Positions 1,061 to 59,715 of a stretch of 64,000 nt of DNA are shown in pieces. Within the stretch, counting starts at the first letter, position 1, and each line of letters starts with the position of its first letter. The DNA comes from an uncultured Candidatus Saccharibacteria bacterium (GTDB lineage: Bacteria; Patescibacteriota; Minisyncoccia; Phycocordibacterales; UBA12088). Under the pieces are notes generated by a model, which did no database searches, had not been told where the DNA came from, and saw only the letters and a program-made list of their open reading frames with translations. The translations under genes and the position numbers were made by a program. The stretch spans positions 6,776-70,775 of the forward strand of contig CAYWMQ010000002.1 in assembly GCA_964459635.1 (NCBI GenBank). The letters run 5' to 3'.

Positions 1061-1072
1061 ATAGCAACTCAC

Positions 1073-1480: not shown

Positions 1481-1507
1481 GTCTTAGGAAACAAACGTAT
1501 AGCAACA

Positions 1508-3433
1508 TTATACCAAGTCGCGCCTAATGAGACTATCTGGCTCCTGTGGGGAAGGTACTTCTTCCGCAACCACTTCAACGACCGGCGCTACGGACGTGTC
1601 AGGCTCCGCAAAATCAGCTCCGCCGAGCGCACCGATCTCTTCATACGGCACTACGGCTTTATACGCTTTACGGATGGCATCTTCTTTCATGGTCAGCATG
1701 CCATTCTTCCGTGCTATCTGGTACACCTTTGCCTCGTCTGCGCTTTCCAGTATGGCTTGCTCCAAGACTTGATCCACGGACAACATTTCGTATACACCGA
1801 CGCGGCCGCGTGTTCCCGTAGGACACGTGGGGGAAGGCTGTATGCCCATAAATTGCTCACCGCGCGGCAGCTTTGCCCTATGCTCGGGAGGCAAGTCGGC
1901 AAACTGCGCCGTGAGCATTTGCGCCACAGCGCCCGTGATCGGAATGGGTTTGCCTGACCCCTCGGGGAGCCGACGCACAAGGCGCTGCGCTATCACAAGC
2001 TCAAGCGTGGGTGCAATAAGGTATGGGTCAACACCCATGTCTATGAGGCGCGGAATGGCACCCGCAGCATTGTTTGTGTGAAGTGTCGAAAGCACGAGGT
2101 GCCCCGTAAGCGCCGCCTGCACGGCAAGCTGTGCGGTTTCTTTGTCGCGTATTTCACCGACCATGATGATGTCCGGGTCCTGCCGCAGCACGCTGCGGAG
2201 GCCCGATGCGAAGGTGTACCCTATTTCGGGACGTACTTGGCTTTGACTCACCCCGGCCATGTTGTACTCCACCGGATCCTCCAGCGACAAGACGTTCTGC
2301 GTGTCCTTATCCACTTCGTTCAGCATTGCATAGAGCGTAGTCGATTTACCTGAGCCGGTCGGACCTGTGATAAGTATGAGGCCGTAGGGAGCCTTGATGG
2401 CATTACGTACCATGGCGAGGTGATCCTCCTCCATCCCAAGCTGCGACAGCGAGACAATGCCGTTTTCCGAGTCCAGAATACGCATCACGACCTTTTCACC
2501 GAAATGTGTTGGAAATGTGGAAACGCGAAAATCAATCTTTCGGCCACCTATGGTTGCGGAAAAGCGACCATCTTGCGGCTTGCGCCGCTCATCCAGCTTT
2601 ATCCCTGCGAGGATCTTCACACGCGCGGCAACAGCCCGCTGCACCTTCGGTGGCAACACGATAGAGGTATGAAGGACGCCATCCACACGAAATCGTACGC
2701 GGACACGCTCACGCTCCGGCTCAATGTGAATGTCCGATGCCCGGCCCTCCACCGCGCTTCGTAGAACCGTTGCAACGATCTTCGTGACAGGTGCTTCCTC
2801 GTGCAGATCAGAGTCTTTACTAGCCCGCTTTACCGTCTCATCCAAGTCATCACCGCCTCCGGCCCCTGTTGAGAGGTCGAAGCTGGTAGTGACTGTCTCT
2901 TCCTGTGCCGTGCCACCCAGCTCCTCAAGAGCCTTACCCACTTCACCTGAAAGGCCTTGGTACAGGGACATGACCTTCCGATAATCGCCGGGGGAAATGA
3001 GAAATACCTTGAACGGAATGTTCTTCTTTGCTGAGATGAAGTTGAGAGCATCAAGCGCCTCTATGTTGTCCGGGTCAACAATACCCACCTCCAAAGCTCC
3101 ATCCACCACCGCAATAGGCACCACCTGGTAGTGCACAGCGGACTCCTCGGGAATATACTCAAGCGTGGAAAAGGGTACAGTTACGCCCTCAAGACTGCGT
3201 GTGGGTATCTCCCAGTGCTCCCCCTTTGCGGCGAGAATGTCACGTGCTGAAACACCATGCTCTGACAGCACTTCATCCAGAGGTCGCCCGCTTGATGCCA
3301 CCTCTTCGTTTATGGTACTCACATCCTTCTCTTCGAGGAGCCCTTTTTGTACTAGTAGCGGAAGTAAGTCAATCACAGGCGTATGTGTTAACGCCTCGTG
3401 TGCTCGGGCAAGTGCGACTGTGCACGACAACAC
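1508..3433 (-). CDS. pilB: Type IV pilus assembly ATPase PilB (GspE family)
   Basis: 641 aa; GPTGSGKSTTLYAML Walker A, DPVEY, GEIRD, TGHLVLSTLHTNNA motifs; N-terminal GSPII_E-like region. Confidence 0.85.
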   Translation of the reverse strand: MLSCTVALARAHEALTHTPVIDLLPLLVQKGLLEEKDVSTINEEVASSGRPLDEVLSEHGVSARDILAAKGEHWEIPTRSLEGVTVPFSTLEYIPEESAVHYQVVPIAVVDGALEVGIVDPDNIEALDALNFISAKKNIPFKVFLISPGDYRKVMSLYQGLSGEVGKALEELGGTAQEETVTTSFDLSTGAGGGDDLDETVKRASKDSDLHEEAPVTKIVATVLRSAVEGRASDIHIEPERERVRVRFRVDGVLHTSIVLPPKVQRAVAARVKILAGIKLDERRKPQDGRFSATIGGRKIDFRVSTFPTHFGEKVVMRILDSENGIVSLSQLGMEEDHLAMVRNAIKAPYGLILITGPTGSGKSTTLYAMLNEVDKDTQNVLSLEDPVEYNMAGVSQSQVRPEIGYTFASGLRSVLRQDPDIIMVGEIRDKETAQLAVQAALTGHLVLSTLHTNNAAGAIPRLIDMGVDPYLIAPTLELVIAQRLVRRLPEGSGKPIPITGAVAQMLTAQFADLPPEHRAKLPRGEQFMGIQPSPTCPTGTRGRVGVYEMLSVDQVLEQAILESADEAKVYQIARKNGMLTMKEDAIRKAYKAVVPYEEIGALGGADFAEPDTSVAPVVEVVAEEVPSPQEPDSLIRRDLV

Positions 3434-3435
3434 TC

Positions 3436-3750
3436 CTACCGGCCCACGAGTGGTGCAAACGGGTCAGGCCTTCCCAGCACAGGCTGTTCGAGCGGCTTGC
3501 TGTGGTCTTGAAGCGCCTTGTACGTTTCATGCGCGAATAGCTGCTCATCCAGCTGTACCCTGCTTAAGCGGTCAAGCTGCATCAGCAGCTCCGTTTCTAT
3601 CTCCTGCGTAGAAGCTGCAATGGAAGCGGCGTCATTCTTTCCGCCGCCCACGACATCAACACCGGTACTTACCACGTACACGAGATACAACAATACAAGA
3701 CCCAGCAAGCCGAGCAATATGGGTTTGAATTTGGACAGCGTACTGAGCAT
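3436..3750 (-). CDS. Small single-TM protein, possible PilP-like pilus assembly component
   Basis: 104 aa with an N-terminal hydrophobic helix; position downstream of the pilM/N/O-like genes. Confidence 0.35.
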   Translation of the reverse strand: MLSTLSKFKPILLGLLGLVLLYLVYVVSTGVDVVGGGKNDAASIAASTQEIETELLMQLDRLSRVQLDEQLFAHETYKALQDHSKPLEQPVLGRPDPFAPLVGR

Positions 3751-3761
3751 GGTGAGATGTG

Positions 3762-4319
3762 TTAGCGAAGCCAGTATGTTTGGAGCGACACGTTAAACTG
3801 GTGTGTACCGGTGGACTGGCCGGCCTCGGACCCTGCGGTAATGTGGACCGAACGTACATCCAAGAGGCGGAGACTGCGCTCAAGGTCATACAAGAAAGCG
3901 CTGAAGTCTGCGTACGTGCCCGATGTGACAAAGGTGATCTCGGCAACTCCGACCGGACCCTGCGGCACCTCTTGTGTGGCGCCGCCGACATCGTCGACGG
4001 ATACGGGGAACGCGAAGTTCTTTATGCGCATACCGTACCGTGACGCGACATTGTCGATATCTATGATAAGGCGTACGTTGTCGACGGAATCGGGCAACAG
4101 CTTTTTTAGGCGAGCCAGATCGGCATCAGCAATGGAACTGTACCGCTGTAAAAGTGCCTCGCGCACTTCCGTAAGCTCCTTGGAGCGGGTGAGCGCGTTG
4201 TCCAACCGTGCATCAAGCGCCCTGAGCGCCTGCAGCTGCTTATATGCAGGGTCGATGTACGTGAAGAACAACCCTACGGCAACAACGATAAAGAAAAATG
4301 GTGCGATGACTTTGCTCAT
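3762..4319 (-). CDS. PilO-like pilus assembly protein
   Basis: 185 aa; N-terminal TM helix followed by a coiled-coil-like region; gene order M-N-O. Confidence 0.45.
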   Translation of the reverse strand: MSKVIAPFFFIVVAVGLFFTYIDPAYKQLQALRALDARLDNALTRSKELTEVREALLQRYSSIADADLARLKKLLPDSVDNVRLIIDIDNVASRYGMRIKNFAFPVSVDDVGGATQEVPQGPVGVAEITFVTSGTYADFSAFLYDLERSLRLLDVRSVHITAGSEAGQSTGTHQFNVSLQTYWLR

Positions 4320-4322
4320 ATG

Positions 4323-5099
4323 TTACCTGCGGCCTGCACTACTTGTAGCGGAAGATGTCGCGGTACTGGTGGAAGAGACAGCGGCGGGGGCCGGTGCTGC
4401 GGGGCGGGGGCGGGCCGCCGCACCGATGGTCCGGTCAAAACGAAGGATACGCGGCTCAAGACTCATGGATGCGCTAAACACTGCCTGATCCGTCTCGGAT
4501 ACGTTGAGGTTTGAAAAAAGCGGTTCACGCACAAGTTCATGCGACGAAAATACGTCGCTTTGCTGGGCAACGCTCTTAAAGTCGGGCGCGGTACCCTGAA
4601 GCGAAAGGAGTACTTGCTTCTCCGGCACATCGGTGGGAGCGTTGCGGTACCGCAGGGACAGATAGCGCACACTACGTGTGGTGTTCTGCTCAAGGAATCG
4701 CAATACTTCCGAAGGAGCAACGTGCGTTTCAAGAAGACGCTTAGCCGAGGTCATGCGGTCATCAAGACGCACCAGCTCTTCAATGAGCGCAGGCTGGAAC
4801 GCGTCACGATTTGCCTTTAGTTGTGCGATCTTGTCACTTATGGCACCGGTGATGTACTGCGTGTACAAAAAGAGGCCTGCTGAAACCAAGCAAGCGATAA
4901 AGAACAAGAGAAACGTCCCGTAGAATCCGGGCCCACGTGTCGACCGGCGAGCAACGTACTCGTGTACCGCCGGGCCCGGGGCCGCGCTCTGAAGCGACTG
5001 CTTCGGAATGAATGAGGTGTTGAACTTGGGCTCCATGTGATGCGTGTGGCGCAAACGTACCTCAAGTATACGGCACGGTGCGTTCAAGAAGCGAAACAC
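4323..5099 (-). CDS. PilN-like pilus assembly protein (the start may be the internal Met near 5036)
   Basis: 258-aa ORF; TM segment FLLFFIACLVSAGLFLY followed by a coiled coil; immediately downstream of pilM. Confidence 0.45.
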   Translation of the reverse strand: MFRFLNAPCRILEVRLRHTHHMEPKFNTSFIPKQSLQSAAPGPAVHEYVARRSTRGPGFYGTFLLFFIACLVSAGLFLYTQYITGAISDKIAQLKANRDAFQPALIEELVRLDDRMTSAKRLLETHVAPSEVLRFLEQNTTRSVRYLSLRYRNAPTDVPEKQVLLSLQGTAPDFKSVAQQSDVFSSHELVREPLFSNLNVSETDQAVFSASMSLEPRILRFDRTIGAAARPRPAAPAPAAVSSTSTATSSATSSAGRR

Positions 5100-5128
5100 T
5101 TATCCACCGACTCGTGATGGCGACCGTA

Positions 5129-6277
5129 CTACAGCCCGCGCAACGCAAGACCCGTCGCTACCGCAAAATCCGGCCCGGCTTCCTTAAGTACGTGCTCCAA
5201 GAATGCCGGGGTCTGCGTATGTGCGAACGGATCGGCGAGCTCGACCTCAAGCTCAAGCTGCGCCTGCACGAATTCGCGCACGCCTTTCATGGTGCTGCCG
5301 CCTCCTGTGAGGATGACCTTTGAAATGACCTTGTTGTGCGTTTTCTGGAAGTTTAGGAGCACTCGCCGGGCTTCTATCATTATGTGTTCCATGCTAAGCG
5401 TGGCCGCGTGCGAGACCATGGCAGAACGGCTCTGTTCGCTCAGACCCGTAACGAGGCCGTTCGCACGCTTCATTTCCTCAGCCTTTCCTACCGACAGGTG
5501 GCTTGAGTTGGCGAGTGCGAGTGTAATGTCCTGCGAGCCTTTGGATATCACGTGCGACGCAAGCACGATACCGAGACCGACCACGTACACCTTGCTCGTG
5601 GCTGCGCCGATGTCGATGATGGCAACGGGAGCCAGGCCGCGCTCGACGGTGCTGCGAATGGTGGAAAATATCTCTATCTCGTAGAAACTCGGAGCGAGAC
5701 CCGCAAGCTTAAGCGTATCGCTGTACTTCCGCAGGACTTCATTGTGAATGGCAACCACGAGTACGAGCTTTTTTTGGAGCGGCTGCTCTGCAGCTTCGCT
5801 CACCGACTGCGCCCCCTCAAAGAATTTCTGCTCGGATTCGGGCACAATAAAGTAATCAAGCTGCACCTCGGCGATAGGCACAGGGATATACTTGCGCGCC
5901 TCGATAGGTATCATTTGCGCAAGCTTTTGAGCCGAAACGGGCGGCATTTCGATAAGCTTCACAAGGCTTGCCGCAAACGGCACCGACGCGCCACAGCGTG
6001 TGGTGGTGACATTTGCCTCCTTCATGAGGCTCTTGAGCGCCTCGGCGAGCTTCTCGGGCGGAAGGTTGGTCGCCCGCCCCACCTCAAGGTCGTTGTACGG
6101 ACCGAGCGCTATCTCTCCATACGTCTCAAGCACGGCTACGCCCTTTTCATTGCGTACCTGTACGAGCTTAATGGCGGATGTGCCTATGTCGATGCCCAGC
6201 ATACTTGTGCTGCTCGCGGAAAGTATCTTACTCTGGAGTAGCTGTTTTGCTTGATCAAAGATCGACATACGTTCCAT
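5129..6277 (-). CDS. pilM: Type IV pilus assembly protein PilM (actin-like ATPase)
   Basis: LGIDIGTSAIKLVQV actin/FtsA-like N-terminus; the start was moved to the MERMSIFDQ Met at 6277. Confidence 0.75.
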   Translation of the reverse strand: MERMSIFDQAKQLLQSKILSASSTSMLGIDIGTSAIKLVQVRNEKGVAVLETYGEIALGPYNDLEVGRATNLPPEKLAEALKSLMKEANVTTTRCGASVPFAASLVKLIEMPPVSAQKLAQMIPIEARKYIPVPIAEVQLDYFIVPESEQKFFEGAQSVSEAAEQPLQKKLVLVVAIHNEVLRKYSDTLKLAGLAPSFYEIEIFSTIRSTVERGLAPVAIIDIGAATSKVYVVGLGIVLASHVISKGSQDITLALANSSHLSVGKAEEMKRANGLVTGLSEQSRSAMVSHAATLSMEHIMIEARRVLLNFQKTHNKVISKVILTGGGSTMKGVREFVQAQLELEVELADPFAHTQTPAFLEHVLKEAGPDFAVATGLALRGL

Positions 6278-6327
6278 AAGTATACCACTTGTGTCGCGGA
6301 GTACAGCACTCGGGGTACACTGGAAGT

Positions 6328-6978
6328 ATGTATAAGTGGGCGACCCTGCTTCTCGAGGTGCTATTTCCCCTTCGCGGCGACGACGCGCTCCTCCTGCGCG
6401 TAGAGCCGCACGTGCTTGAGCGCGCCGCACTCACGCGGAATACTGTCGGCATTGCACGCGCACTTGCACCGCTACCGTACACCCACAAGCTGGTGTCATG
6501 CGCGGTACGCGCGGCAAAGTATCGCAACCACGAGCGGGCCGCATGGCTCTTAGGTACGGCTATAGCGCCCTTTGTGGGTGAGGAGATCGCGGACAAACGC
6601 AACTTTGGCACATTTTACGAAGCTCTCGTGGTTCCAATACCGCTCCATAAGAAACGTCGCAGAGAGCGCGGGTACAATCAAGCCGAGCGTATTGCACAGG
6701 CCGTTGTGGATGCTCTGCCGGAAAGCGGGCTCCTGCTCGCGCCCCAGGTGCTCGTGCGAACGCGCAATACCCCATCACAGGTACGCATACAGAAGCGCAA
6801 GGAACGGCTTGCAAACGTACGAGGTGCGTTTGCGGTGCCGGACCCGGCAGGCGTGCACGGTAGAGATATTATTGTGCTCGACGATGTGACCACCACGGGC
6901 GCGACCCTTGCCGGTGCGGCGCAGGCGTTGAAAAAGGCCGGGGCACGTGAAGTGCTTTGCGTGGCAGCGGCACATTGA
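6328..6978 (+). CDS. comFC: ComF-family phosphoribosyltransferase-domain competence protein
   Basis: C-terminal IIVLDDVTTTGATL PRTase motif; the N-terminal region is typical of ComFC. The start was placed at MYKWATLL, which has an upstream GGAAG. Confidence 0.7.
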   Translation: MYKWATLLLEVLFPLRGDDALLLRVEPHVLERAALTRNTVGIARALAPLPYTHKLVSCAVRAAKYRNHERAAWLLGTAIAPFVGEEIADKRNFGTFYEALVVPIPLHKKRRRERGYNQAERIAQAVVDALPESGLLLAPQVLVRTRNTPSQVRIQKRKERLANVRGAFAVPDPAGVHGRDIIVLDDVTTTGATLAGAAQALKKAGAREVLCVAAAH

Positions 6979-7086
6979 CGGACACGATACCAATCTGCGA
7001 ATGATACGAATGCAACGAATGTACTACGCGTTACGCGACTCGAACCCGCAACAAGCAGCGGAGTTGGCCAAGCTAGGGTGTGCAGC

Positions 7087-7359
7087 TCACTCGTACACTT
7101 CTTTGCGATGTTTTATGCGCAGCACGGTAAGGACGTGGACGACCTTACCGTGCTCAAACTCAAAAATAGCGCGATACTCTCCCACTCGATACCGATACAA
7201 ACCCGTAAGCGGTCCTGTAAGCGCTTTTGCTCGCGCGAGCGGGTCGGGCATGCTGCTGTTCTCCTTCACCTTCAACACAATGCGGCGTGCAAGCGGCTTG
7301 TCGAGCGCAAGCAAATCTTTACGTGCATGCGCCGTATAGAACAACGCGGTGGTAGCCAT
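7087..7359 (-). CDS. RelE/ParE-family type II toxin
   Basis: 90 aa; fold-typical RelE/ParE sequence; 6 bp downstream of the antitoxin gene. Confidence 0.6.
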   Translation of the reverse strand: MATTALFYTAHARKDLLALDKPLARRIVLKVKENSSMPDPLARAKALTGPLTGLYRYRVGEYRAIFEFEHGKVVHVLTVLRIKHRKEVYE

Positions 7360-7365
7360 ATATAC

Positions 7366-7608
7366 TCAGGAAAGCTCCGCAAGAATATCATCATGCGTGT
7401 AAAGCTTACCCTCACGTATGTCCCGTTTTGCGGCAAGTATGTCGCTGAAGAGCGTATCGAGCGTTACGTCCTCAGCAAAAGGGGTCAGCTCGAAAAGCGG
7501 CTTGTTGCGGTTGACTACGATATACCGCGCGTTCTTTTTCCGCGCGCGAGTCACGTAATCGGATATGTTGGCGCGAAAATCCTTAATGCCGACAAACTTT
7601 GTGTTCAT
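7366..7608 (-). CDS. Phd/YefM-family antitoxin
   Basis: 80 aa; Phd/YefM-like N-terminus (FVGIKDFRANISDYV...); operon partner of the RelE-like gene. Confidence 0.6.
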   Translation of the reverse strand: MNTKFVGIKDFRANISDYVTRARKKNARYIVVNRNKPLFELTPFAEDVTLDTLFSDILAAKRDIREGKLYTHDDILAELS

Positions 7609-7778
7609 ACCTGAAGTGTACCAGAAGTGTACACTTTGTCAACGACACGCAAACCTCCCCACATACTTCCCTTCGCGAACAAGGCAGCGCTGCAGCACAG
7701 CCACCATCAGTTGGGGTGAGAAAATGGGGAAAGTATGGTACAGTAGCTCCGTTCGGAGTTGTGAATTGCAGTGTTCTC

Positions 7779-7994
7779 GGGTTGCACCTTGCCCCAAGCT
7801 TCGCAAGGAGCACGGCATGAACAGATCAAGGTACGTGTAGGCATTCGGGACAAGTAGGACATTGGACGAAAGTGAATATTGGAGGGTTGCACCTTGCCCC
7901 AAGCTTCGCAAGGAGCACGGCATGAACAGATCAAGGTACGTGTAGGCATTCGGGACAAGTAGGACATTGGACGAAAGTGAATATTGGAGGGTTG
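7779..7994. repeat. Perfect tandem duplication, 2 x 105 bp, ending inside the 5' end of tRNA-Ser
   Basis: The unit beginning caccttgccccaagcttcgcaagg... is repeated at 7785 and 7890 (period 105) with identical copies. A 6-bp GGGTTG microhomology sits at the junctions. Confidence 0.85.
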
Positions 7995-8074
7995 GCCGAG
8001 TGGTCGAAGGCGCATCACTGCTAACGATGTAGGGGGTAAAACCCCTCAAGGGTTCGAATCCCTTACCCTCCGCC
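7986..8074 (+). tRNA. tRNA-Ser (anticodon GCT), class II with long variable arm
   Basis: Hand-folded: acceptor GGAGGGT/ACCCTCC, anticodon loop CTGCTAA, GGGGG-TAAAA-CCCC variable arm, T-loop TTCGAAT. Very similar in outline to E. coli tRNA-Ser(GCU). Confidence 0.85.
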
Positions 8075-8324
8075 TTCGGTCCGCCGAAGCAGACCTATGG
8101 CGTGACGAAGTCCGCCGGAAGGTGTGCGTAGGCGACCTTCGCCTCGCTGAAGCGTGGCTACGGCGTGACGAAGTCCACAAGGAGCTAGGCGAAAGCGGGG
8201 TTCGCTTGCGTAGACCTTCGCTGTGGCAGAGTCCGCAGAAACCGAGCGAGCGAAGGTGACCAGTGAGATGCCCTTACCGTCCACACAAACGTGTGCAGAA
8301 AAATACCATCAGCTGTTGACTGTG

Positions 8325-8333
8325 TGGTATAAT
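8325..8333 (+). promoter_or_regulatory. Extended -10 promoter element TGgTATAAT
   Basis: Perfect extended -10 about 100 nt upstream of the first island ORF. The nearby TTGACT is too close to serve as the -35. Confidence 0.4.
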
Positions 8334-8439
8334 AGGGAAGGTTCAGCTCGAATGTCCTCTTTCAAATGGGCATCCACCAGATTTTAGGAAGTGGCTCCGA
8401 AGCCTCCAGGGAGGGGTTAACACCTTCCAAAGAGATGTC

Positions 8440-8895
8440 ATGACATCTCCAGTACCGGCCGGTACGCCCACTGGGTTCTTCCTACACTTCTCACGATGCC
8501 CACTTGAGCGCGGGGATTCATGCCGCGACCTATGCAGAACAGAAGAATGGTCAACTTGCACTTGTAACAAGCAATGCAACATGAACAGTGAAAAACCCTC
8601 TAATGAGTCGGAAAAAGAAATTGCGGAAGATGCGTTAGATATGTTACCGCCGATGCTTGAGCATAAGGGAGGAACATATTCAGAAACGGTGGCATTGCTG
8701 GAGAATGGCGAATTTGACCCTATCAATCGAACGGATGGCAGTCCACGTTACCTGATGTTCTACACTCCGCAAGAGCTGTACAAGCTTGCGTATGCCGTCG
8801 AACAAAAGTATCCAGAATATCATTTTACGTTTGAGACTGATCCATACGGGCAGTGGATGAAGTACACTGTTACGCGTGAAGCAAGTAAAAATTAG
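8440..8895 (+). CDS. Hypothetical protein, first gene of the low-GC island (alternative start at 8581, MNSEK)
   Basis: ORF with AT-richer codon usage from about 8570 onward; no recognizable family. Confidence 0.4.
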   Translation: MTSPVPAGTPTGFFLHFSRCPLERGDSCRDLCRTEEWSTCTCNKQCNMNSEKPSNESEKEIAEDALDMLPPMLEHKGGTYSETVALLENGEFDPINRTDGSPRYLMFYTPQELYKLAYAVEQKYPEYHFTFETDPYGQWMKYTVTREASKN

Positions 8896-8960
8896 AAGCT
8901 AGTTATGAAGCGTATGCGCTACTTATTTATTGTCGTGTTACTCGCCCTCGTGGGTGCCGT

Positions 8961-9479
8961 ATGAGTATCGAACAACCAAATACACAACCGCAAACCGAGA
9001 GCCTTGAAGAAAAGCTGAAGGATAGCAAAGTACGAGACGAAAACGGCAATTTGCTCATAGTGTACCACTTCTCCGACCAGGATTTTGATAATTTTTCTTT
9101 GGATCATGTTGGGCAAAACTTCGATGGAGACAAGGGGTTCTTTGGCGCGGGCGTCTATTTTACAGGGTTTGCTGATGCTTCTGCATACGGCTCAAAGAGG
9201 TATGCTGCATATCTTAATCTAAGAAACCCACTCATCTTGCATAATCCCAGCCTCGAAGACATTCAGAAGTTGCACGGCAAGAGAGAAGCGCTCCTTGCTG
9301 AGGGATATGACGGCGTTATGGTGTGGAGCGACGCTCTAGAAGGAAAAACGGTCGCCACTGGAAAGCTGCGAGCCACTGTGCCGCCACGGCCAGCGGGGTG
9401 GAGCGAAATATGCGTACTAAACACAGGAGATATTTACCCTCTCAGGAAGGAGGAGGTGCGGTCCACATCACAGGAATAG
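8961..9479 (+). CDS. Putative H-Y-E class (PARP-like) ADP-ribosyltransferase domain protein
   Basis: 172 aa. The patterns LLIVYHFS, GFFGAGVYFTGFADASAYGS and a downstream SEICVL line up with the PARP catalytic H-G-S / G-x-G-I-Y-F-A / Y-E motifs. AT-richer than the surrounding genome. Confidence 0.45.
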   Translation: MSIEQPNTQPQTESLEEKLKDSKVRDENGNLLIVYHFSDQDFDNFSLDHVGQNFDGDKGFFGAGVYFTGFADASAYGSKRYAAYLNLRNPLILHNPSLEDIQKLHGKREALLAEGYDGVMVWSDALEGKTVATGKLRATVPPRPAGWSEICVLNTGDIYPLRKEEVRSTSQE

Positions 9480-9665
9480 CACCTACCTATCCCTAATGAT
9501 TGCCTGTAACATATTTCGCCCATCTGGTAATTAACACACACTGCCCGCTCACCCACTCCATACTTCACACTCTCGTCTGAGGTGCGGGCTGCACACCTCG
9601 CACTCACTAAAACGCACGAATGACGTATACTGTAGGTACTTATCCAAATAGCGTTCTTGTTGCTT

Positions 9666-9980
9666 ATGCGGTACCTATACATATTCCTTGCCGTCGCCAT
9701 TCTGGGCGCTGTCGGCTACTGGTACGCCGAACGAAATGACTGGTGGGGCTTTTTTGAAGCACCACTCCCAAGCGCGCCGCCAACCGCCGAGGAGCGCGAA
9801 CGTATGGCCGAAGTGGAGCGCACGAGCCAAACACAAGCGGAGAACCCTAAACCCGGCGCAGGCGTGTTGCCGCCGGGCTCACGTCCACCGGTACAGCCCG
9901 CAACTAGCACAGAGGCCACAACTACCGAAGAGTCTGACGCAATAGCGAGTACTACTGACACAGAGGCAACTTCACGCTAG
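9666..9980 (+). CDS. Small membrane-anchored Pro/Thr-rich hypothetical protein
   Basis: N-terminal TM helix followed by a low-complexity P/T/E-rich tail; the start codon is ambiguous (TTG at 9657 or ATG at 9666). Confidence 0.4.
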   Translation: MRYLYIFLAVAILGAVGYWYAERNDWWGFFEAPLPSAPPTAEERERMAEVERTSQTQAENPKPGAGVLPPGSRPPVQPATSTEATTTEESDAIASTTDTEATSR

Positions 9981-10030
9981 CCTCCGTACCCGTTGCCGCA
10001 TCCGCATACGATTCCCCCATACGCACGCCC

Positions 10031-11458
10031 CTACCTATACGATCGCTCCGCAAAGCTGAGCATCGCATTCATGTCGGCGGCAAGATCTGCCGAATCCAGC
10101 ACAATGAGCGCCAGGCGTCGGCGTGTCCGGCCGATGTTGACCTCCACTACGGCAAGACCGTCTCGCAGTGAGCCATCGTGTGGCGCGCGCAGCTCTGTCC
10201 CCGTGGCAAACGCCATCATGACCGCCGCCGTGTCGTCCTTGCGTGAACGCGCTACTTGCTCCGTGGCACCACCCAAAAAGCGTGCATCCTCCGCAAGCGG
10301 ATGCGCGGGCGTAAGGCCCGTGATGCGCGGCTCCCCATACGTGCGCGTGTTCGCGCGCCCCGCGCTCATCGACAAAATGAACGAGCGGTTTTGCTCCAAG
10401 TAGCGCAAGAGCAAGAAAATATCTTCCGCTGTCGTCTTTGCGTGATAGGACCCATCTTCGGCGCGGTTAAAGGTCGTAGCGCGCAAACCGAGTGAGCGAG
10501 CTTTATTGGAAAGAAGCGTCTCAAAGCGCCGCTCTCCAAAGTAGGCCGCGAGCGAGCGAGCGGCGTCGGGCGAGCTTTTAAGCAAAAGCGGGAAAAAGAG
10601 CTCATAGATACTGTACGAGGTTCCGGATGTAAAGCCCGCGTCCGGATCTACGTCGCCTTCCACACGCACCGACCGCTCAATGTTCTCATACTCACTCGCC
10701 ACCACCGCGGTCAAAAGCGTGGGGAGTGTTTGCGTTTCATGCGTATCAGTCGGCGCACCCGCAAGCAACACGAAGTTGTTGGCAAGATCGGCCACAAGGT
10801 ACCGCTTGGCGCTCACCGCAGGTGCAGCGAGCGTATAGCTCGGCCCCTCCGGCTGTGCGTCGGCCTCGTGCACGAGTATCGGCATACCGACCTTGACTCG
10901 CTCGTACACTTGCGCCGCATACGCATCTTCGAGGCGTATGCAGCCGCCTGAGTACCGCGAATCCACCGGCGTACCGTCGTCGTAGTGCGGCCAGCCATGG
11001 ATAAAAAAGTTCCCTTGGAACGGTATGGAGTACGGCATGTGCACACGACCGAACGACGAGAAGTGTGAGCGCTCCTTGCCCTCCGCCCGGTAGAGACCGG
11101 ACGGTGTTTCCCACCAACTCCCCTCTTTGCCTTTGCTCTTGATAGGCACGCGTAAGGTGCTGGTACCCTTCTCGTACACCGTGAGGGTCATGGCTTCCAG
11201 ATCCGCTTCAATAAAGCTCGCGCTGTCGCGTATAAACTCCTCCTTGACCTCATTGAAGAAGTCAGCGCGCGCAAGCTCGGGCCAAATGCCATACTCAAGC
11301 ACGGTGCTGGAGGCCGCTGCCGCCCCAAGCGTGATGCGATAGTTGTCCACCTTGTCGCGCGCAAGGAGCGCCGCCGTCCCCGCTCCAAGAAGGGTACCCG
11401 CCACCACGCACACAAGCGCGAGGGCAAAGTTGACGTGGCTTTCGAGAAGGAAACGCAT
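10031..11458 (-). CDS. L,D-transpeptidase (YkuD) domain fused to a DD-carboxypeptidase-like (S11/PBP5-like) domain; the active-site SxxK appears replaced
   Basis: HGWP...GTPVDSRYSGGCIRL matches the YkuD catalytic motif. The C-terminal half is homologous to the DacA-like paralog at 59716..61113, but the paralog's SITK corresponds here to TLPT. Confidence 0.6.
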   Translation of the reverse strand: MRFLLESHVNFALALVCVVAGTLLGAGTAALLARDKVDNYRITLGAAAASSTVLEYGIWPELARADFFNEVKEEFIRDSASFIEADLEAMTLTVYEKGTSTLRVPIKSKGKEGSWWETPSGLYRAEGKERSHFSSFGRVHMPYSIPFQGNFFIHGWPHYDDGTPVDSRYSGGCIRLEDAYAAQVYERVKVGMPILVHEADAQPEGPSYTLAAPAVSAKRYLVADLANNFVLLAGAPTDTHETQTLPTLLTAVVASEYENIERSVRVEGDVDPDAGFTSGTSYSIYELFFPLLLKSSPDAARSLAAYFGERRFETLLSNKARSLGLRATTFNRAEDGSYHAKTTAEDIFLLLRYLEQNRSFILSMSAGRANTRTYGEPRITGLTPAHPLAEDARFLGGATEQVARSRKDDTAAVMMAFATGTELRAPHDGSLRDGLAVVEVNIGRTRRRLALIVLDSADLAADMNAMLSFAERSYR

Positions 11459-11627
11459 ACGGAGTACAGAGTGTGGAGTTTAGAGATCAGAGATTCAAGG
11501 CAGCGGGATGCGAGGACATATGCATATAGCGATAGGGGAACACAAGCGGCAAGGGTACGCGGGTTGGGAAAAACATGCACCTGCTCAGATAGTTAGTGTA
11601 CTATATACACTAACTATTTAATACTGC

Positions 11628-12197
11628 TTAGCGGTACTTCGGCGGCTCCTCGGCCACACCCTCCGCAAAGTTGGCGTAGCGGGCGAGCGCAAAGAGGACC
11701 GACGAAAGCCTGTTGAGGTATGCGAGCGTGTGCTTGGAAAGCTTCCGGATGCCGGCCTCATGCAAGCCCACCGCCCGCCGCTCCGCGCGCCGCGCCAGGG
11801 TGCGCACCACATCAAGGATGGCCGAAAGCTCCGTACCGCCCGCGAGTGCGAATGTCTTCAAAGGCGGTATCGCGTGCTCTACGGTGTCCGTAATACGCTC
11901 TGCGCGCAGCACTTTCGCACGCGTGAGCTTTTTCGGTGCGCCGGCAAGCTCGGCCTGCACGATGAACAAGTTTTGCTGCACCTCATAGAGAAGCGCCTCA
12001 ATGCTCGCGGCTTTTGTGCCGAGCGCGAGCGGCCGCGGTGCACTGCGGCGTGCCACGGCACGGGCGAGCCCCACGAACGAATTCACCTCGTCAAAGGTGC
12101 CCAGTGCCTCCGGCAGCGCAGACGCTTTCGAGATACGCTCCGGCCCCGAGTCAAACACCCGGGTCGTGCCCGCATCACCTTTTCGTGTGTACAGCAT
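11628..12197 (-). CDS. PduO-type ATP:cob(I)alamin adenosyltransferase
   Basis: MLYTRKGDAGTT N-terminal signature of PduO/MMAB-type adenosyltransferases. Confidence 0.7.
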   Translation of the reverse strand: MLYTRKGDAGTTRVFDSGPERISKASALPEALGTFDEVNSFVGLARAVARRSAPRPLALGTKAASIEALLYEVQQNLFIVQAELAGAPKKLTRAKVLRAERITDTVEHAIPPLKTFALAGGTELSAILDVVRTLARRAERRAVGLHEAGIRKLSKHTLAYLNRLSSVLFALARYANFAEGVAEEPPKYR

Positions 12198-12239
12198 AGC
12201 TCCAGTATACCGCACCGCATGGACAAAAAAGAAACGGCA

Positions 12240-12548
12240 TCAAGATGATGCCGTTTCTGCGATAGGCTCTACCGCCAAGGTGCGCTTTTCCTTCGCACTA
12301 CGGTATTCAAGAACCTTCTGCACCGCGTACCTTATGGTATTTTCAGATACTCGTGCCGGTACGACAATGCGAGGACTAACCGCTACCCTGCCTGGGAACT
12401 CCTCCTGATCGGACACCATATACGTACGGTATGCACACAACGCCACGGCAGTGCCGCGTTCGACATGGCGGCGAACTTCTGCCACAAGTACTTCCTCTTC
12501 ATGGTCGTGGCGACCGAGAGAGCTTGCGACAGGCTTCCGAAAAAACAT
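12240..12548 (-). CDS. Hypothetical protein (102 aa)
   Basis: ORF with an AGGAG SD 5 nt upstream of the ATG; no family recognized. Confidence 0.3.
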   Translation of the reverse strand: MFFRKPVASSLGRHDHEEEVLVAEVRRHVERGTAVALCAYRTYMVSDQEEFPGRVAVSPRIVVPARVSENTIRYAVQKVLEYRSAKEKRTLAVEPIAETASS

Positions 12549-12859
12549 GTCTGCTCCTAAGTGAGAAGATGGACAGCGAGCACGTACACGCCTGTGCACG
12601 CAACGATGGGGCCAAGAGGCCTGCACGGCCACGGGGCCTTTTCCCAGATGTAGAGATGGGTTTGATGCAACATATCGGTCGCATCGCGCGCTATGCGTCG
12701 CGCCGCATACCACCGGGCTTCCCACTGGTATGGGCGGCATGCGTCAATTAGGTCATGCATTGGATCTTTCCTTGATGCTCCCCCTTTGGTCTACCTTTAT
12801 GAAAACACGCTTCATTTTGTGGGTCAAGACGCGCACACGTTCATGGTATACTGCGCCTC

Positions 12860-14998
12860 ATGAACCCTGAGCAGCCGCTCGCGGATATCATGCGCATACC
12901 AGACGCAGAAGCGCGGGCACTCAAGCGCCTCGGCATAGCAACCGCGCGCGACCTCCTCTACCACCTCCCCGCTCGCTACGAACGCGCGGGCGATGTGCGC
13001 ACCATAGGCGGTATCGCGACCGGCACCGAAGCCATACTCTACGGGACTTTGCGCAAACCGGAGACGAGAAAAACATGGAAAACGAAGCGGCCCATTGCTG
13101 AGGCATGGCTTGAGGACGGCACGGGCAAGCTGAAACTCATGTGGTTCAACCAGCCGTACATTGCAAAGATGTACCCCGACGGACTCACGGTGAAAGTGTC
13201 AGGCCGCATAGACGGCACGCCCCCGTACATGGCAAACCCAGAGATAGAGCGCATTGAGCGTATACCGGTAGGTGGCACCGGGCCGCTCTTTAAGGAGACG
13301 AGCGATGAGCTCCTCGCGGTATACCCGGAGTCACAGGGCGTGTCTTCACGCTGGATGCGGCATGCGATAGCGCGGCTTTTGCGTGAGGGAGCACACGAGG
13401 CTCTGCCCGATCCGATACCTGAGCCGATACGCACACGCTACCGCTTGCCCTCACTTGCTGCGGCACTCGTGTACATACACACACCCAAGCGCGACAAGGA
13501 CGCCGCCGCCGCACGCAAGCGCTTTGCATTCGAGGAAGTGTTTACGATACAGGTGGCCGCACAACAGGAGCGTGCCGGGCTCGCGAAGCTCCCCACACCC
13601 GCTATACCGGACGGGCCGGGCCGTGCCAGGGAGCTTGAGGCACGACTGCCTTTTCGTCTCACACGGGGCCAAGAGCGTGCCGTGGCGGCAATACTCTCCG
13701 ACATGAGCGCACCACCCGCCATGAGCCGCTTGCTTGAGGGCGACGTCGGGAGCGGTAAAACGGCCGTTGCCGCGCTCACCTCGTATGCGGTCGTGACGAG
13801 CGCGCCCAAAGGCCGACCGTCCGCCAACTACCAGGTAGCGTACATGGCGCCCACTGAGGTATTGGCGCAGCAGCATTTTGAGTCTTTCATTTCATTATTC
13901 AAGCACCTCCCCATACAGCTGGGGCTACTTACCGGAAGCGTGTGCCGTAGGTTTCCGTCGAAGGTGCGCGCAAGCGAGAGCACGCCTGTGTCGCGTGCTC
14001 AGCTCTTGAAGCAAGTCGCGAGCGGCGAGATATCCATGCTCATAGGCACGCATGCGCTCATACAAAAGAGCGTGGCCTTTCGCGACCTCGCGTATGTGAT
14101 AGTGGACGAGCAGCACCGCTTCGGGGTCAACCAGCGCCGCACACTCGTACGTAAAGATGGGACACTGCCTCACTTTCTTTCTATGACCGCCACGCCGATA
14201 CCACGTACGCTCGCCCTTACCCTGTACGGTGACCTAGACCTGACGGTGCTCGATGAAATGCCCGCAGGCAGGAAGCCCGTACATACCGAGGTGGTGCCAA
14301 AAGGCGGGCGCGCGGCCATGTACACCGCGCTCCGTGCCGAGCTCACCGCGGGCAGGCAAGCGTACGTGATATGCCCGCGCATAGACGAGGCGGACCCAAG
14401 CAAAGCTGCTGCGCTCGTGACGAAGTCCGTGACGGCGGAGGCGGCACGGCTTGCGGCGGGCGAACTTAAGGGATTTCGTGTGGCGCTGCTCCACGGCCAG
14501 ATGAAACCGAACGAGAAAGATGTGGTCATGCGCGCGTTCCTCGCACACGAGGCAGACGTGCTCGTGGCTACATCGGTGGTGGAAGTGGGGGTCAACGTAC
14601 CGAACGCCACGGTCATCATCATTGAAGGCGCGGAGCGTTTTGGGCTGGCACAGCTCCACCAGCTGCGCGGCCGCGTCGTACGGTCTACCCATCAAGCCTA
14701 CTGCTACCTCCTCACGAGCGAGGGTCAACACAACAGCCGCCTCACCGCGCTCGCGAAAGCGAAGAGCGGCTTTGAGCTGGCGGAGCTTGACCTCAAGCTC
14801 CGAGGCCCGGGCGAGCTCTACGGGCGAAGCCAGTCCGGACTTTCCGACATCGGCATGGAGGCGCTCAAAAACCTGAAGCTCGTGGAAGCCGCACGCGATG
14901 AAGCACGCGCGCTTGTGGCTCTGGACAGCGCGCTTTCACATTACCCCGCGCTCGCCCACGCGGTCGCTCGCCGCCGCGAGCGCTTGCACTTTGAGTAA
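12860..14998 (+). CDS. recG: ATP-dependent DNA helicase RecG
   Basis: 712 aa; GDVGSGKT Walker A, DEQHRFGV, helicase C-terminal motifs, and an N-terminal wedge-domain region. Confidence 0.9.
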   Translation: MNPEQPLADIMRIPDAEARALKRLGIATARDLLYHLPARYERAGDVRTIGGIATGTEAILYGTLRKPETRKTWKTKRPIAEAWLEDGTGKLKLMWFNQPYIAKMYPDGLTVKVSGRIDGTPPYMANPEIERIERIPVGGTGPLFKETSDELLAVYPESQGVSSRWMRHAIARLLREGAHEALPDPIPEPIRTRYRLPSLAAALVYIHTPKRDKDAAAARKRFAFEEVFTIQVAAQQERAGLAKLPTPAIPDGPGRARELEARLPFRLTRGQERAVAAILSDMSAPPAMSRLLEGDVGSGKTAVAALTSYAVVTSAPKGRPSANYQVAYMAPTEVLAQQHFESFISLFKHLPIQLGLLTGSVCRRFPSKVRASESTPVSRAQLLKQVASGEISMLIGTHALIQKSVAFRDLAYVIVDEQHRFGVNQRRTLVRKDGTLPHFLSMTATPIPRTLALTLYGDLDLTVLDEMPAGRKPVHTEVVPKGGRAAMYTALRAELTAGRQAYVICPRIDEADPSKAAALVTKSVTAEAARLAAGELKGFRVALLHGQMKPNEKDVVMRAFLAHEADVLVATSVVEVGVNVPNATVIIIEGAERFGLAQLHQLRGRVVRSTHQAYCYLLTSEGQHNSRLTALAKAKSGFELAELDLKLRGPGELYGRSQSGLSDIGMEALKNLKLVEAARDEARALVALDSALSHYPALAHAVARRRERLHFE

Positions 14999-15000
14999 CA

Positions 15001-15076
15001 GGTGCGCGTGCCAGGGCTCGAACCTGGGACCGCCGAGGTATAAGCTCGGAGCTACTACCAACTGAGCTACACGCGC
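15001..15076 (-). tRNA. tRNA with anticodon UAU (reads AUA; tRNA-Ile2-like)
   Basis: Hand-folded from the reverse complement: acceptor GCGCGTG/CACGCGC, anticodon stem CCGAG/CTCGG, loop CTTATAC, T-loop TTCGAGC, discriminator A. Confidence 0.7.
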
Positions 15077-15253
15077 AATACTTGTTGTCAAACGTACTCC
15101 CCACCTATTCGCGCACAGAACCGTTACCTGCCACGACAGCTATGCGCGCGTACGGGTACTATATAGCGCACAGGCACAAAACGCAAAACACCGACGTGGG
15201 GCCGGTGTTTTGCGCATCGCTGTGATGCTAAGGCGCTGCGCTATCATCCTGCG

Positions 15254-16699
15254 CTACTCACCGGGAGTGGGTGCAGACGTGGTCGCCCAGCTTGGGGCGG
15301 TGCCGGTGCTTGTGTTCATGTTCGTACGGTATATGGCCTCGCCAGCGCGTGCTTCAGGGGCAACCGGTGCGGAAGTGGTGCTTGTGCCCCAGCGTACGGA
15401 GTCGGAAAGCGTGCCATCGCTACGGTACAGACGCACGCTATCGCCGTCGTTGTCGAGTCCGTTACCAATGCTCATACTCAGTACCAACCACGCCGTACCT
15501 GTTGGTAGCGTCCAGAATTCATCCGTTGAGGTCGCGGGCGTGATGAGCGCATATGCTCCGGGCGCAAGGAGTCGCGTAGTTGTAGCGAGCGTGCGCGTGG
15601 CCGTGTCATCGCGCAGAGTCCAGCCCATCAGGTCTACGGTGGTGGAGCCGCTGTTCCAAAGCTCCACCCATTCGTTTTCCGGTTCTTCACCCCATGCACT
15701 GGTGGTGCCACTCCGGTACAACACCTCCGTGATACTTACGGTACCTGTTGCAGCAGTGGTCGTCGCGGGTGTCGTGGTCGCGGGTGTTGTTGTAGCAGGC
15801 GTGGTCGTGGCAGGTGTGGTTGTCGCCGGAGTAGTCGTCGCGGTCGTAGTCGTGGCAGATGTCGTGGTAGCGGAGCCTGAAGTTGCCATGCGCGAGAATC
15901 CGACGGTTACCGAGTCGGTGGTCGTACCCCTCTCATTTGCACAGGCGAGCGCGTACGTACTTGTCGCGTTTACCGTGACCGTACTGCTGCCCGTCGTAGC
16001 CCTGGACCCGCTCCATGCATTTGTGGCGATACAGCTATTTGCGTTTGTGCTGCTCCACGTGAGCGTGGTACTCGCCGGTGCGGTACCTGTGGCAGTCACC
16101 GTTTGAGGATCTGCACTGAGGTCAACAGTCGGAAGCGCCATAGTGGAGGTAGAGGTGGTACCTGTCGAGGTGCCAGTTGTGGTACCTGTCACTGTGAGCA
16201 TGATCGTGCGGGATGTTGTGCCCCGCTCATTCGCACACGCGAGGCTATACTCGGTGCTCGTCGCCGGCGATACGGCTGCCGTACCGGACGCGACGCGTGT
16301 GCCTGTCCAGCCTCCTGACGCAAGACACGTGTCCGCATACAGCGCGTTCCACATAAGGGTGCTGGTCGCTCCCGTAGCTATCGTTCCCGGGTTTGCGGAG
16401 AAAGTAAGCGCAACCGGCCGCGCCGGAGTACCGCTCCCCTCCTCACAAAACGCGGGGAGCTCTATGCCATACCTGTCTTGGAGTCCCGCGTACCGCGTAC
16501 ATATGCGCTCTTCGGCACGCGCAAGTCGCTCTTCAATACGCTGCAGGGCGCGCTCTATCCGCGCGTCTATCCGCTCTTGTATGCGCTCAAACAGGAGGTA
16601 TGTGTTGTCTGTCGTGGTTGCCTGCGCCTGCACCGTGTGCGGAAGCACGGAAGCGCACAAAGCTACAAGCAGAAGCGCAACGCTGGTTTGTATCTTCAT
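15254..16699 (-). CDS. Secreted surface protein with two Ig-like repeat modules, a Thr/Pro-rich linker and a C-terminal lamin-tail (LTD) domain
   Basis: Signal peptide MKIQTSVALLLVALCASVLPHTVQA; an internal ~95-aa repeat (...LACANERGTT... twice); (TTPAT)n linker; EWVELWN...VDLMGWTL LTD signature. Confidence 0.65.
   Translation of the reverse strand: MKIQTSVALLLVALCASVLPHTVQAQATTTDNTYLLFERIQERIDARIERALQRIEERLARAEERICTRYAGLQDRYGIELPAFCEEGSGTPARPVALTFSANPGTIATGATSTLMWNALYADTCLASGGWTGTRVASGTAAVSPATSTEYSLACANERGTTSRTIMLTVTGTTTGTSTGTTSTSTMALPTVDLSADPQTVTATGTAPASTTLTWSSTNANSCIATNAWSGSRATTGSSTVTVNATSTYALACANERGTTTDSVTVGFSRMATSGSATTTSATTTTATTTPATTTPATTTPATTTPATTTPATTTAATGTVSITEVLYRSGTTSAWGEEPENEWVELWNSGSTTVDLMGWTLRDDTATRTLATTTRLLAPGAYALITPATSTDEFWTLPTGTAWLVLSMSIGNGLDNDGDSVRLYRSDGTLSDSVRWGTSTTSAPVAPEARAGEAIYRTNMNTSTGTAPSWATTSAPTPGE
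15757..15872. repeat. 15-bp tandem repeat (about 7 copies) encoding the TTPAT linker
   Basis: ggtcgtNgcNggtgt-like units seen directly in the sequence. Confidence 0.7.
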
Positions 16700-59710: not shown

Positions 59711-59715
59711 ATTTA

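Follow-up and report, generated by a model that had tools for sequence, protein, structure and literature searches.

ART-PolyVal is a family of ADP-ribosyltransferases (ARTs) that was described in 2017 by Iyer et al., with an H-Y-D active site, membership of the Tox-ART-HYD2 clade and a relationship to PARPs and diphtheria toxin (PMC5512222). It is described as the most common macromolecule-modifying domain in giant proteins with a predicted injection by phages and conjugative elements (PMC5512222, PMC9503650). These polyvalent proteins are predicted to enter cells together with the DNA of phages or conjugative elements, and the T4 proteins Alt, ModA and ModB, which modify host proteins to favour the invading genome, serve as a functional analogy for their ARTs (PMC5512222). 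No experimentally characterised member of the family was found in the literature searched. We analysed a 64,000-nucleotide (nt) stretch of DNA, here called the window, from an uncultured Candidatus Saccharibacteria bacterium (contig CAYWMQ010000002.1, positions 6,776 to 70,775). The second open reading frame (ORF2) of a low-GC segment 3′ of a tRNA-Ser gene encodes a stand-alone protein of 172 amino acids (aa). Judged by its sequence and its structural model, ORF2 is an ADP-ribosyltransferase of the already described ART-PolyVal family, which belongs to the H-Y-[E/D] branch of the superfamily. We consider it reasonably probable that ORF2 is a catalytically competent stand-alone enzyme whose gene, in Candidate Phyla Radiation (CPR) bacteria, is a horizontally moving single-gene cassette of approximately 0.5 kb.

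ORF2 (8961–9479, + strand) carries the motifs LLIVYHFS (residues 31–38), GFFGAGVYFTGFADASAYGS (59–78) and SEICVL (148–153), which a first-pass annotation of the DNA had read as PARP-type catalytic motifs. ORF2 matched the Pfam family PF18760 (ART-PolyVal) at 37.0 bits, above the cut-off of 31.2 (E = 6.9e-9), and the same precomputed assignment stands on all close homologues. The PHROGs search matched positions 523–620 of the 1664-position profile phrog_21376 (E = 7e-11). The AlphaFold2 model, based on 24 homologues, reached a predicted local distance difference test score (pLDDT) of 84.5 and a predicted TM-score of 0.76, and Foldseek returned PARPs and tankyrases only. The profile-to-PDB search was non-significant alone (E approximately 0.2), and its matches were almost only tankyrases and PARP13, with VYHFS and GAGVYF..Y of ORF2 aligned on LFHGS and GAGIYF..QY of tankyrase. 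The family match, the predicted fold, the Foldseek result and the tankyrase alignment agree with the PARP-type reading, and the comparison with the ART clan that had been proposed for ORF2 gave a positive answer. No Pfam match of ORF2 to the PARP profile (PF00644) was obtained, nor any profile match to DarT, RES or their antitoxins.

The predicted catalytic residues are H36 (codon 9066–9068), Y66 (9156–9158) and E149 (9405–9407), all on the + strand. They lie on predicted strands 34–38, 65–68 and 146–152, and all three are invariant in every full-length solo homologue. Among 469 domain instances, 450 of 456 carry H, and of the 35 whose alignment extends to the E position, 34 carry E. In its predicted ART fold ORF2 follows the family, with H on the first strand, Y on the second and an acidic residue on the fifth. 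ORF2 also has the N-terminal signature F.[DE]SKV.D..G.L..VYH, the G.YF strand and the GYDG motif of ART-PolyVal, and both are tied to horizontally moving DNA. The third catalytic residue is E in ORF2 and D in the 2017 prototype (PMC5512222), and a β-hairpin of approximately 20 residues is inserted in ORF2 between GYDGVMVW and GWSEI. By analogy with PARP and diphtheria-toxin-type chemistry, ORF2 would bind NAD+ and transfer ADP-ribose to a macromolecule.

ORF2 has the H-Y-E triad of the PARP/diphtheria-toxin-like ARTs, including the second tyrosine 10 residues on (Y66 and Y76). Its sequence identity to PARPs is only 13–20%; it is without their helical regulatory or accessory domains, and nothing in it points to the formation of poly-ADP-ribose chains. 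T4 Alt, ModA and ModB are phage-encoded and belong to the R-S-E clade (PMC5512222), whereas ORF2 is of the H-Y-E type and gave neither a sequence match nor a top structural match to them.

The exhaustive profile search covered 1.84 billion representatives and yielded 3737 clusters. The other members of the ART-PolyVal family found were mostly 1000–7300 aa long, and some carry the domain as many as 13 times. Among the 148 best matches that were newly found, the median length was 2505 aa; 121 were longer than 1000 aa and 2 were shorter than 300 aa. In the Tunturiibacter phage Tunturi_5, the ART domain lies in a 1362-aa protein among head-tail connector and tail genes, and in the Pseudomonas phage F116 it lies in a 1649-aa protein. 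In contrast to a domain in a 1000–7000-aa polypeptide, ORF2 is a single-domain protein encoded on a CPR chromosome, outside any virion or conjugation gene cluster, and lacks the large multi-domain architecture of the polyvalent proteins, a difference in context that does not touch the definition of the domain.

ORF2 belongs to a tight clade of approximately 16 stand-alone proteins of 159–177 aa, which are 48–59% identical to it. Approximately 16 solo clusters at 90% identity were found among 5.8 billion proteins, and only one match among 185,579 species genomes. The traceable sources were Ca. Giovannonibacteria, Ca. Paceibacterota, the 'Parcubacteria group' or environmental metagenomes, several of them from groundwater; the named homologues suggest a Parcubacteria/CPR origin for the window. 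No description of this solo clade was found in the literature searched. A scan of viral contigs gave distant partial matches only (26–34% identity), and no phage source of the solo clade was identified. In P0041 (253 aa), a more distant stand-alone relative, two transmembrane helices are predicted C-terminal to the ART domain, which makes it a membrane-anchored version. The first-pass annotation had proposed that a minimal cassette of an ART and an unknown partner at a tRNA would be new in this lineage. The enzyme family has been known since 2017 (PMC5512222), but its solo, chromosomal and apparently mobile form in CPR bacteria, favouring sites after stable-RNA genes, is new.

The family occurs overwhelmingly in giant proteins of mobile elements, which would fit a decaying relic, with ORF2 as an inactive fragment of a polyvalent protein from a prophage or conjugative element and ORF1, the upstream ORF, as spurious. 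ORF1 is an ORFan, and a truncated gene relic, the mini-ORF described below, adjoins ORF2. We regard this explanation as very improbable. The domain in ORF2 is full length and confidently folded in the model, and the same start and stop architecture recurs in approximately 16 homologues. In eight solo sequences 44 positions are invariant; this conservation and that of H, Y and E, at 50–59% identity, point to purifying selection, which counts against a relic. No other phage or conjugation genes occur among the ORFs of the window that were scanned with Pfam.

The two-breakpoint likelihood segmentation delimited a compositionally foreign segment at 8285–9690, whose GC content is 0.477, compared with 0.592 outside it. 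At each of the sizes 500, 900 and 1150 nt, the GC-poorest window of the whole 64 kb lies within this region. The lowest 900-nt window has a GC content of 0.462, approximately 4 standard deviations below the mean of 0.573 (standard deviation 0.028). The GC content at third codon positions was 0.457 in ORF1 and 0.514 in ORF2, compared with 0.58–0.74 in resident genes. ARAGORN and Rfam (tRNA, 54.4 bits) agree on the tRNA-Ser(GCT) gene at 7986–8074 (+ strand), where the earlier annotation had placed it. The GC content directly 3′ of this gene (8075–8330) is a host-like 0.586, and the segment begins approximately 210 nt downstream of the tRNA. The reported GC drop is thus real, and the most extreme in the window, but it starts at about 8285 and not directly after the tRNA.

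The segment contains a promoter motif, ORF1, a mini-ORF and the ART gene with its 3′ non-coding flank. The extended −10 promoter-like motif TGGTATAAT was read directly at 8325–8333 (+ strand), as previously annotated, and may function as a promoter. It was not listed by the promoter scan, which demands a −35 element too. With TGGTATAAT as the promoter and 8581 as the ORF1 start, the leader would measure approximately 240 nt (8341–8580); Rfam gave the tRNA alone and no riboswitch or known structured RNA for the leader and the tRNA-Ser trailer. ORF1 (8581–8895, + strand) encodes an acidic protein of 104 aa; the alternative start at 8440 gives 151 aa and adds a Cys-rich, higher-GC N-terminal extension that does not look native. 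Two ORFs and nothing else had been assigned to the motif, but a hydrophobic mini-ORF of 19 codons, MKRMRYLFIVVLLALVGAV (8905–8964, + strand), lies between them. The mini-ORF begins 9 nt beyond the stop codon of ORF1, and its own stop codon overlaps the ORF2 start (ATGA), which suggests translational coupling. The ART gene stands 886 nt after tRNA-Ser, with ORF1 in between. Its 3′ non-coding flank (9480–9665, + strand, GC 0.486) extends to the start of ORF3 and has no similarity to the flanks of the other cassettes.

The window is chromosomal DNA, with genes for PilB, PilM, PilO, a ComF-like protein, ParE/Phd, CobAT, RecG, FtsH, SecY, EF-G, ComEC, RecJ and PGK. In line with the earlier annotation, no integrase or macrodomain gene was found among the genes scanned with Pfam (761–16699), nor were phage or conjugation genes, and no second copy of the tRNA-Ser 3′ arm exists anywhere in the 64-kb window. 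With no integrase among the scanned genes and no duplicated tRNA 3′ arm, the window does not show the classical tRNA-island signature.

The solo ART genes were found in eight independent contexts. In all 10 loci compared, the GC content of the ART gene was below that of its flanks, by 0.047 to 0.138. In the window, the order is tRNA-Ser(GCT), ORF1, mini-ORF, ART and ORF3 (ART 0.489, flank 0.577). The second context (L001–L004) is 5S rRNA, ART and RelB/YafQ (L001: 0.383, 0.467). In the third, ART lies between an ABC-F or Fic gene and a convergent DEAD-box helicase gene, in L009 (0.329, 0.467), L013 (0.333, 0.457), L014 (0.335, 0.445) and the P0010 contig. The fourth (L011 and L012) is tRNA-Ile(TAT), ART and convergent RecG (L011: 0.347, 0.407), and the fifth (L098 and L099) is an aminoacyl-tRNA synthetase gene, ART and DUF559 (L098: 0.278, 0.354). 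The remaining contexts are Gp49/HTH (helix-turn-helix), ART and 23S rRNA in L100 (0.421, 0.524); tRNA-Ser(TGA), ART and RuvX in L101 (0.391, 0.438); and HTH genes, ART and Metallophos in L102 (0.320, 0.367).

Three of the eight contexts have the ART gene starting no more than 60 nt 3′ of a stable-RNA gene of the same orientation: 59 nt after 5S rRNA (L001), 4 nt after tRNA-Ile(TAT) (L011) and 15 nt after tRNA-Ser(TGA) (L101). Approximately 0.7% of genes in 915 kb of Parcubacteria DNA have such a position. Against this background the probability of three in eight is approximately 2e-5, and it is 6e-3 when the background is set at 5%. Each of the eight contexts has toxin-antitoxin or nuclease-like genes in its loci (RelB/YafQ, Gp49/HTH, Fic, a weak PemK-like match, ParE/Phd, SocA_Panacea, DUF559 and DUF2726 among them all), which indicates that these are variable regions. 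The L014 locus differs from the close L013 by an HTH and Fic/Doc-like pair between ART and the DEAD-box helicase gene (9002–9677), present in L014 only, a further sign that this spot is a hotspot for small insertions. RecG or DEAD-box helicase genes adjoin ART in several contexts; a functional link to helicases was considered, but the adjacency can be explained by the synteny of one lineage together with the tRNA-Ile/RecG junction as an insertion site, and it is not taken as a sign of function.

One of these sites was found both filled and empty. In L011, a distant Paceibacterota genome, tRNA-Ile (5922–5996) is followed after 4 nt by the ART gene (6001–6501) and after a further 2 nt by the convergent RecG gene (6504–8672, − strand). 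In the window, nothing lies between RecG (12860–14998) and tRNA-Ile(TAT) (15001–15076, − strand), where the RecG stop codon and the tRNA 3′ end are 2 nt apart (empty site, 14996–15003). The two RecG proteins are 46% identical, and FtsH lies beyond tRNA-Ile in both genomes, so that the tRNA-Ile(TAT)/RecG pairing with FtsH nearby is conserved between them. The low GC content of the ART gene is the sole basis on which insertion in L011 may be preferred as the direction of change. The stretch 5922–6506 of L011 leaves the ART gene no space for a promoter or terminator of its own, so its transcription would have to come from the tRNA gene. This arrangement implies a tRNA-mRNA co-transcript with a nearly leaderless message.

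Direct repeats bracket the ART gene in two of the other contexts. In L001, a stretch made up of the final 38 nt of 5S rRNA and a further 14 nt (5904–5955) is repeated 600 nt downstream, just after the ART gene, with 51 of 52 positions identical. A 96-nt insert with AGTA at its borders (6528–6623) interrupts the downstream copy. This insert contains an inverted repeat and resembles a miniature inverted-repeat transposable element. In L098, a 53-nt sequence consisting of a stop codon and a terminator hairpin is repeated 609 nt downstream with 91% identity; it brackets the ART gene only, and the locus contains these two copies and no more. Three other features were observed in L001, which is from Giovannonibacteria: the rRNA-operon terminator hairpin overlaps the TGCTATAAT motif (5956–6000), this motif ends 7 nt before the ART start codon, which may allow a leaderless mRNA, and the 23S rRNA gene contains LAGLIDADG ORFs.

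In the window, the candidate repeat is formed by the mini-ORF on the left and the first approximately 19 codons of ORF3 on the right. ORF3 (9666–9980, + strand) encodes a small membrane-anchored protein. The mini-ORF aligns without gaps to residues 1–19 of ORF3 (MLLMRYLYIFLAVAILGAV), with 10 of 19 aa identical over 57 nt. The protein alignment score was 50, compared with 20.3 ± 4.2 for shuffled sequences, and none of 5000 shuffles reached it. At the DNA level, the best 50-nt register matched at 32 of 50 positions with an offset of 752 nt (background 24.9 ± 1.4, maximum 29). By these alignments the 5′ end of ORF3 has a diverged duplicate in the mini-ORF, so that a direct repeat brackets ORF2. 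The two copies differ at many synonymous positions and the mini-ORF is richer in A/T-ending codons, which suggests that its source was an ORF3-like gene in a donor of lower GC content. ORF3 itself reads as a resident gene from its composition (GC 0.597) and conservation: orthologues with 43–45% identity stand in CobAT-YkuD-ORF3 synteny in four related loci (L015, L016, L018 and L019), all without ORF1 and ART. A metagenome scan with the neighbouring YkuD protein gave 80 loci, the closest of them 51% identical.

These placements resemble tRNA 3′-end islands in that ART genes stand 3′ of co-oriented stable-RNA genes with a foreign composition, and the 5S 3′ end of L001 is duplicated beyond the insert in the manner of attL and attR. 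They differ in that the cargo is a single gene of approximately 0.5 kb, the insert is approximately 0.6–0.75 kb, and no integrase is nearby. No duplicate of a tRNA 3′ end was found for tRNA-Ser in the window, as had been noted before, nor for the tRNAs of L011 and L101. Nor are the duplicated targets related to one another: one is a 5S 3′ end, one a stop codon with a terminator hairpin and one the 5′ end of a protein-coding gene. No array, integrase or shared 3′ element was seen, which argues against an integron gene cassette; attC was not searched for.

Several observations weigh against a mobile cassette encoding an active enzyme. The PF18760 match of ORF2 is limited to profile positions 1–74 of 140, and for the C-terminal half with E149 the support comes from the family alignment and the model. 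The low GC content of the ART gene could partly reflect its own amino-acid and codon make-up and not recent transfer. The difference between L011 and the window is seen in two genomes and may be either an insertion or a precise loss. Flanking repeats are present in two to three of the eight contexts and were found in none of the other five; the repeat of the window is weak in DNA, where a stricter 40-nt test was marginal (25 of 40, background fraction 0.014). The relatives of the tRNA-Ser site are at most 51% identical in YkuD, and their synteny ends at ORF3, so they do not amount to a true empty site. No integrase or recombinase was found among the scanned genes of the window (761–16699) or the called genes of the related loci, and no conserved end sequence or non-coding element common to cassettes of different lineages was detected. 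L009, L013, L014 and the P0010 contig keep the ART gene beside the DEAD-box helicase gene, and in this lineage it looks vertically inherited.

This last point bears on a different explanation, in which the ART is a vertically inherited resident enzyme that modifies a component of its own cell, for example in translation or RNA metabolism, and the low GC content is a by-product. The position between the ABC-F-type ATPase and DEAD-box genes is stable in L009, L013 and L014, and P0010 keeps the DEAD-box gene while Fic replaces the ATPase. RNA-related neighbours (5S and 23S rRNA, tRNAs, aminoacyl-tRNA synthetase, RuvX and RecG) are frequent, and the strong conservation of the solo sequences would also suit a resident function. 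We nevertheless give this explanation little weight. The distribution of the solo gene is very patchy, its locus is different in each lineage, and the gene is missing from the five closest relatives of the window locus. The filled and empty forms of an orthologous site and the target duplications in L001 and L098 also speak against residence.

The first-pass annotation had interpreted ORF1 and ORF2 as a horizontally acquired ART toxin with a cognate neutralizer. The compositionally foreign character of the segment agrees with the first part of this claim, while the toxin-neutralizer arrangement found no support. ORF1, which had been reported to lack a recognizable family, gave no match in Pfam, PHROGs, NCBIfam or PADLOC as either the 104-aa or the 151-aa protein. 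No homologue but itself was found among 5.8 billion proteins; tblastn against the related loci gave nothing, and none of the 148 polyvalent proteins resembled it in any part. It was called in four assemblies. The single-sequence AlphaFold2 model of ORF1 (pLDDT 74) has the order helix-helix-strand-strand-helix-strand-strand and resembles only generic ferredoxin-like folds; no macrodomain, ARH, Xre, MbcA, ParS or RhsI2 fold was recognised. ORF1 is probably a real gene and is probably co-transcribed with the ART gene.

In a toxin-antitoxin or toxin-immunity pair, ORF2 would be a growth-arresting ART toxin and ORF1 would neutralise it or reverse the modification. The tight packing of ORF1, mini-ORF and ORF2 within the same low-GC segment is compatible with such a pair, as is the nature of ORF1, which is small, acidic (isoelectric point 4.59) and predicted to fold. 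The structurally related ARTs MbcT, ParT, DarT and RhsP2 are toxins with partners. DarT-DarG, the RES-Xre systems (ParT-ParS and MbcT-MbcA) and RhsP2-RhsI2 are like the ART locus in their small size and in their variable, toxin-antitoxin-rich regions. They differ from it in having a conserved partner, whereas the small gene upstream of ART occurs in the window only. The seven other independent contexts have the ART gene without ORF1 or an equivalent small neighbour. The homologues at 50–59% identity stand alone, several of them with a terminator next: an intrinsic terminator directly follows the ART gene in L009, L013 and L014, and a promoter-like motif lies just upstream of it in L013 and L014. 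Stand-alone homologues with the same catalytic residues and an adjoining terminator indicate that the enzyme is tolerated without an adjacent antidote. ORF1 has no homologue, is no detached domain of a polyvalent protein and has no known antitoxin or immunity fold, and we consider the pair unlikely.

With no conserved partner found, the ART gene is not assigned to the known paired systems. A DarTG system consists of a DarT-family ART and an adjacent macrodomain protein, DarG, and a RES-Xre system (ParST, MbcTA) of a RES toxin and an adjacent Xre, COG5642 or MbcA antitoxin; neither arrangement is present. A generic type II toxin-antitoxin or toxin-immunity system has a conserved partner, and ORF1 occurs in this genome only. 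ORF1 would be a lineage-specific passenger or modulator and not a family-wide partner.

In another explanation the ART is an effector of episymbiosis, which the CPR cell exports to its bacterial host or to a competing cell, where it would modify proteins or nucleic acids. An enzyme harmless to its own cell would need no immunity gene, and the ARTs of polyvalent proteins are predicted to act in another cell after delivery with DNA (PMC5512222). The window has type IV pilus and competence genes (PilB, PilM, PilO and ComEC), and the two transmembrane helices of P0041 would fit export. We find this explanation improbable. The 172 aa of ORF2 show neither a signal peptide nor any domain known from secretion or delivery, and no genomic link to a secretion system was found in the eight contexts. 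The pilus genes of the window are approximately 2–7 kb away, beyond ComF, the ParE/Phd pair and the tRNA.

Returning to the mobile single-gene cassette, we propose that a domain of giant polyvalent proteins became a solo gene in Parcubacteria-type (CPR) bacteria. This gene would have come to occupy a different chromosomal place in each lineage, GC-poor, enriched 3′ of stable-RNA genes and sometimes bracketed by a 52–57-nt target duplication. In the window, ART may have arrived within the 1.4-kb low-GC segment between the tRNA-Ser trailer and ORF3, and ORF1 and the 19-codon relic of an ORF3-like 5′ end may have come along with it. The three frames are packed like an operon, and ART would probably be expressed from TGGTATAAT through ORF1 and the mini-ORF. 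The enzyme may act in genetic conflict, in defence against invading phage or DNA or in its manipulation, since the family setting, the patchy mobile distribution and the neighbourhoods rich in toxin-antitoxin and nuclease-like genes all point in this direction. Its activity would be too mild to the carrier to need an adjacent antidote. We speculate further, and tentatively, that the solo ART genes are an undescribed, integrase-less mobile unit of approximately 0.6 kb that inserts at stable-RNA 3′ ends or terminators, duplicates approximately 52–57 nt of the target and can be expressed by read-through from tRNA or rRNA promoters; we would give this well below an even chance.

Several other features were observed around the tRNA-Ser gene. 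Its trailer (8066–8275, + strand) consists of approximately three degenerate copies of approximately 63 nt, recognised by blastn self-match, alignment and RNA folding. The trailer lies outside the low-GC segment because its GC content is host-like. The blastn self-match aligned 8073–8113 with 8136–8176 at 78% identity, and the trailer folds better than shuffled sequence (z = −3.1). These repeats could be a structured trailer or scars that repeated events left at the site. At 7779–7994, the region upstream of tRNA-Ser and the first 9 nt of this gene form a perfect tandem duplication of 105 nt (2.1 copies, 100% identity). Four independent public assemblies with an identical ART gene all stop at approximately 7965, within this repeat, which either reflects a real and recent doubling of the tRNA promoter region or arose in assembly. 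A ParE-toxin/Phd-YefM-antitoxin pair (7087–7608, − strand) lies directly upstream of tRNA-Ser. Two paralogous genes, each with a YkuD (L,D-transpeptidase) and a Peptidase_S11 (D,D-carboxypeptidase) domain, were found at 10031–11458 and 59713–61113, both on the − strand.

A free-standing version of 172 aa with an intact H-Y-E triad would be far easier to study than a 3000-aa polyvalent protein and could offer a route to the substrate of this very widespread family of phage effector domains. A single enzyme gene that apparently moves between tiny CPR genomes bears on how reduced genomes gain conflict genes, and its sites could reveal an insertion mechanism that leaves target duplications of approximately 50 nt. 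If the minimal mobile unit is real, a phage-derived PARP-like enzyme spreads as an antidote-free, one-gene conflict module. If the gene is instead a vertically inherited regulator, it would join a small number of known candidates for ADP-ribosylation regulators in CPR bacteria.

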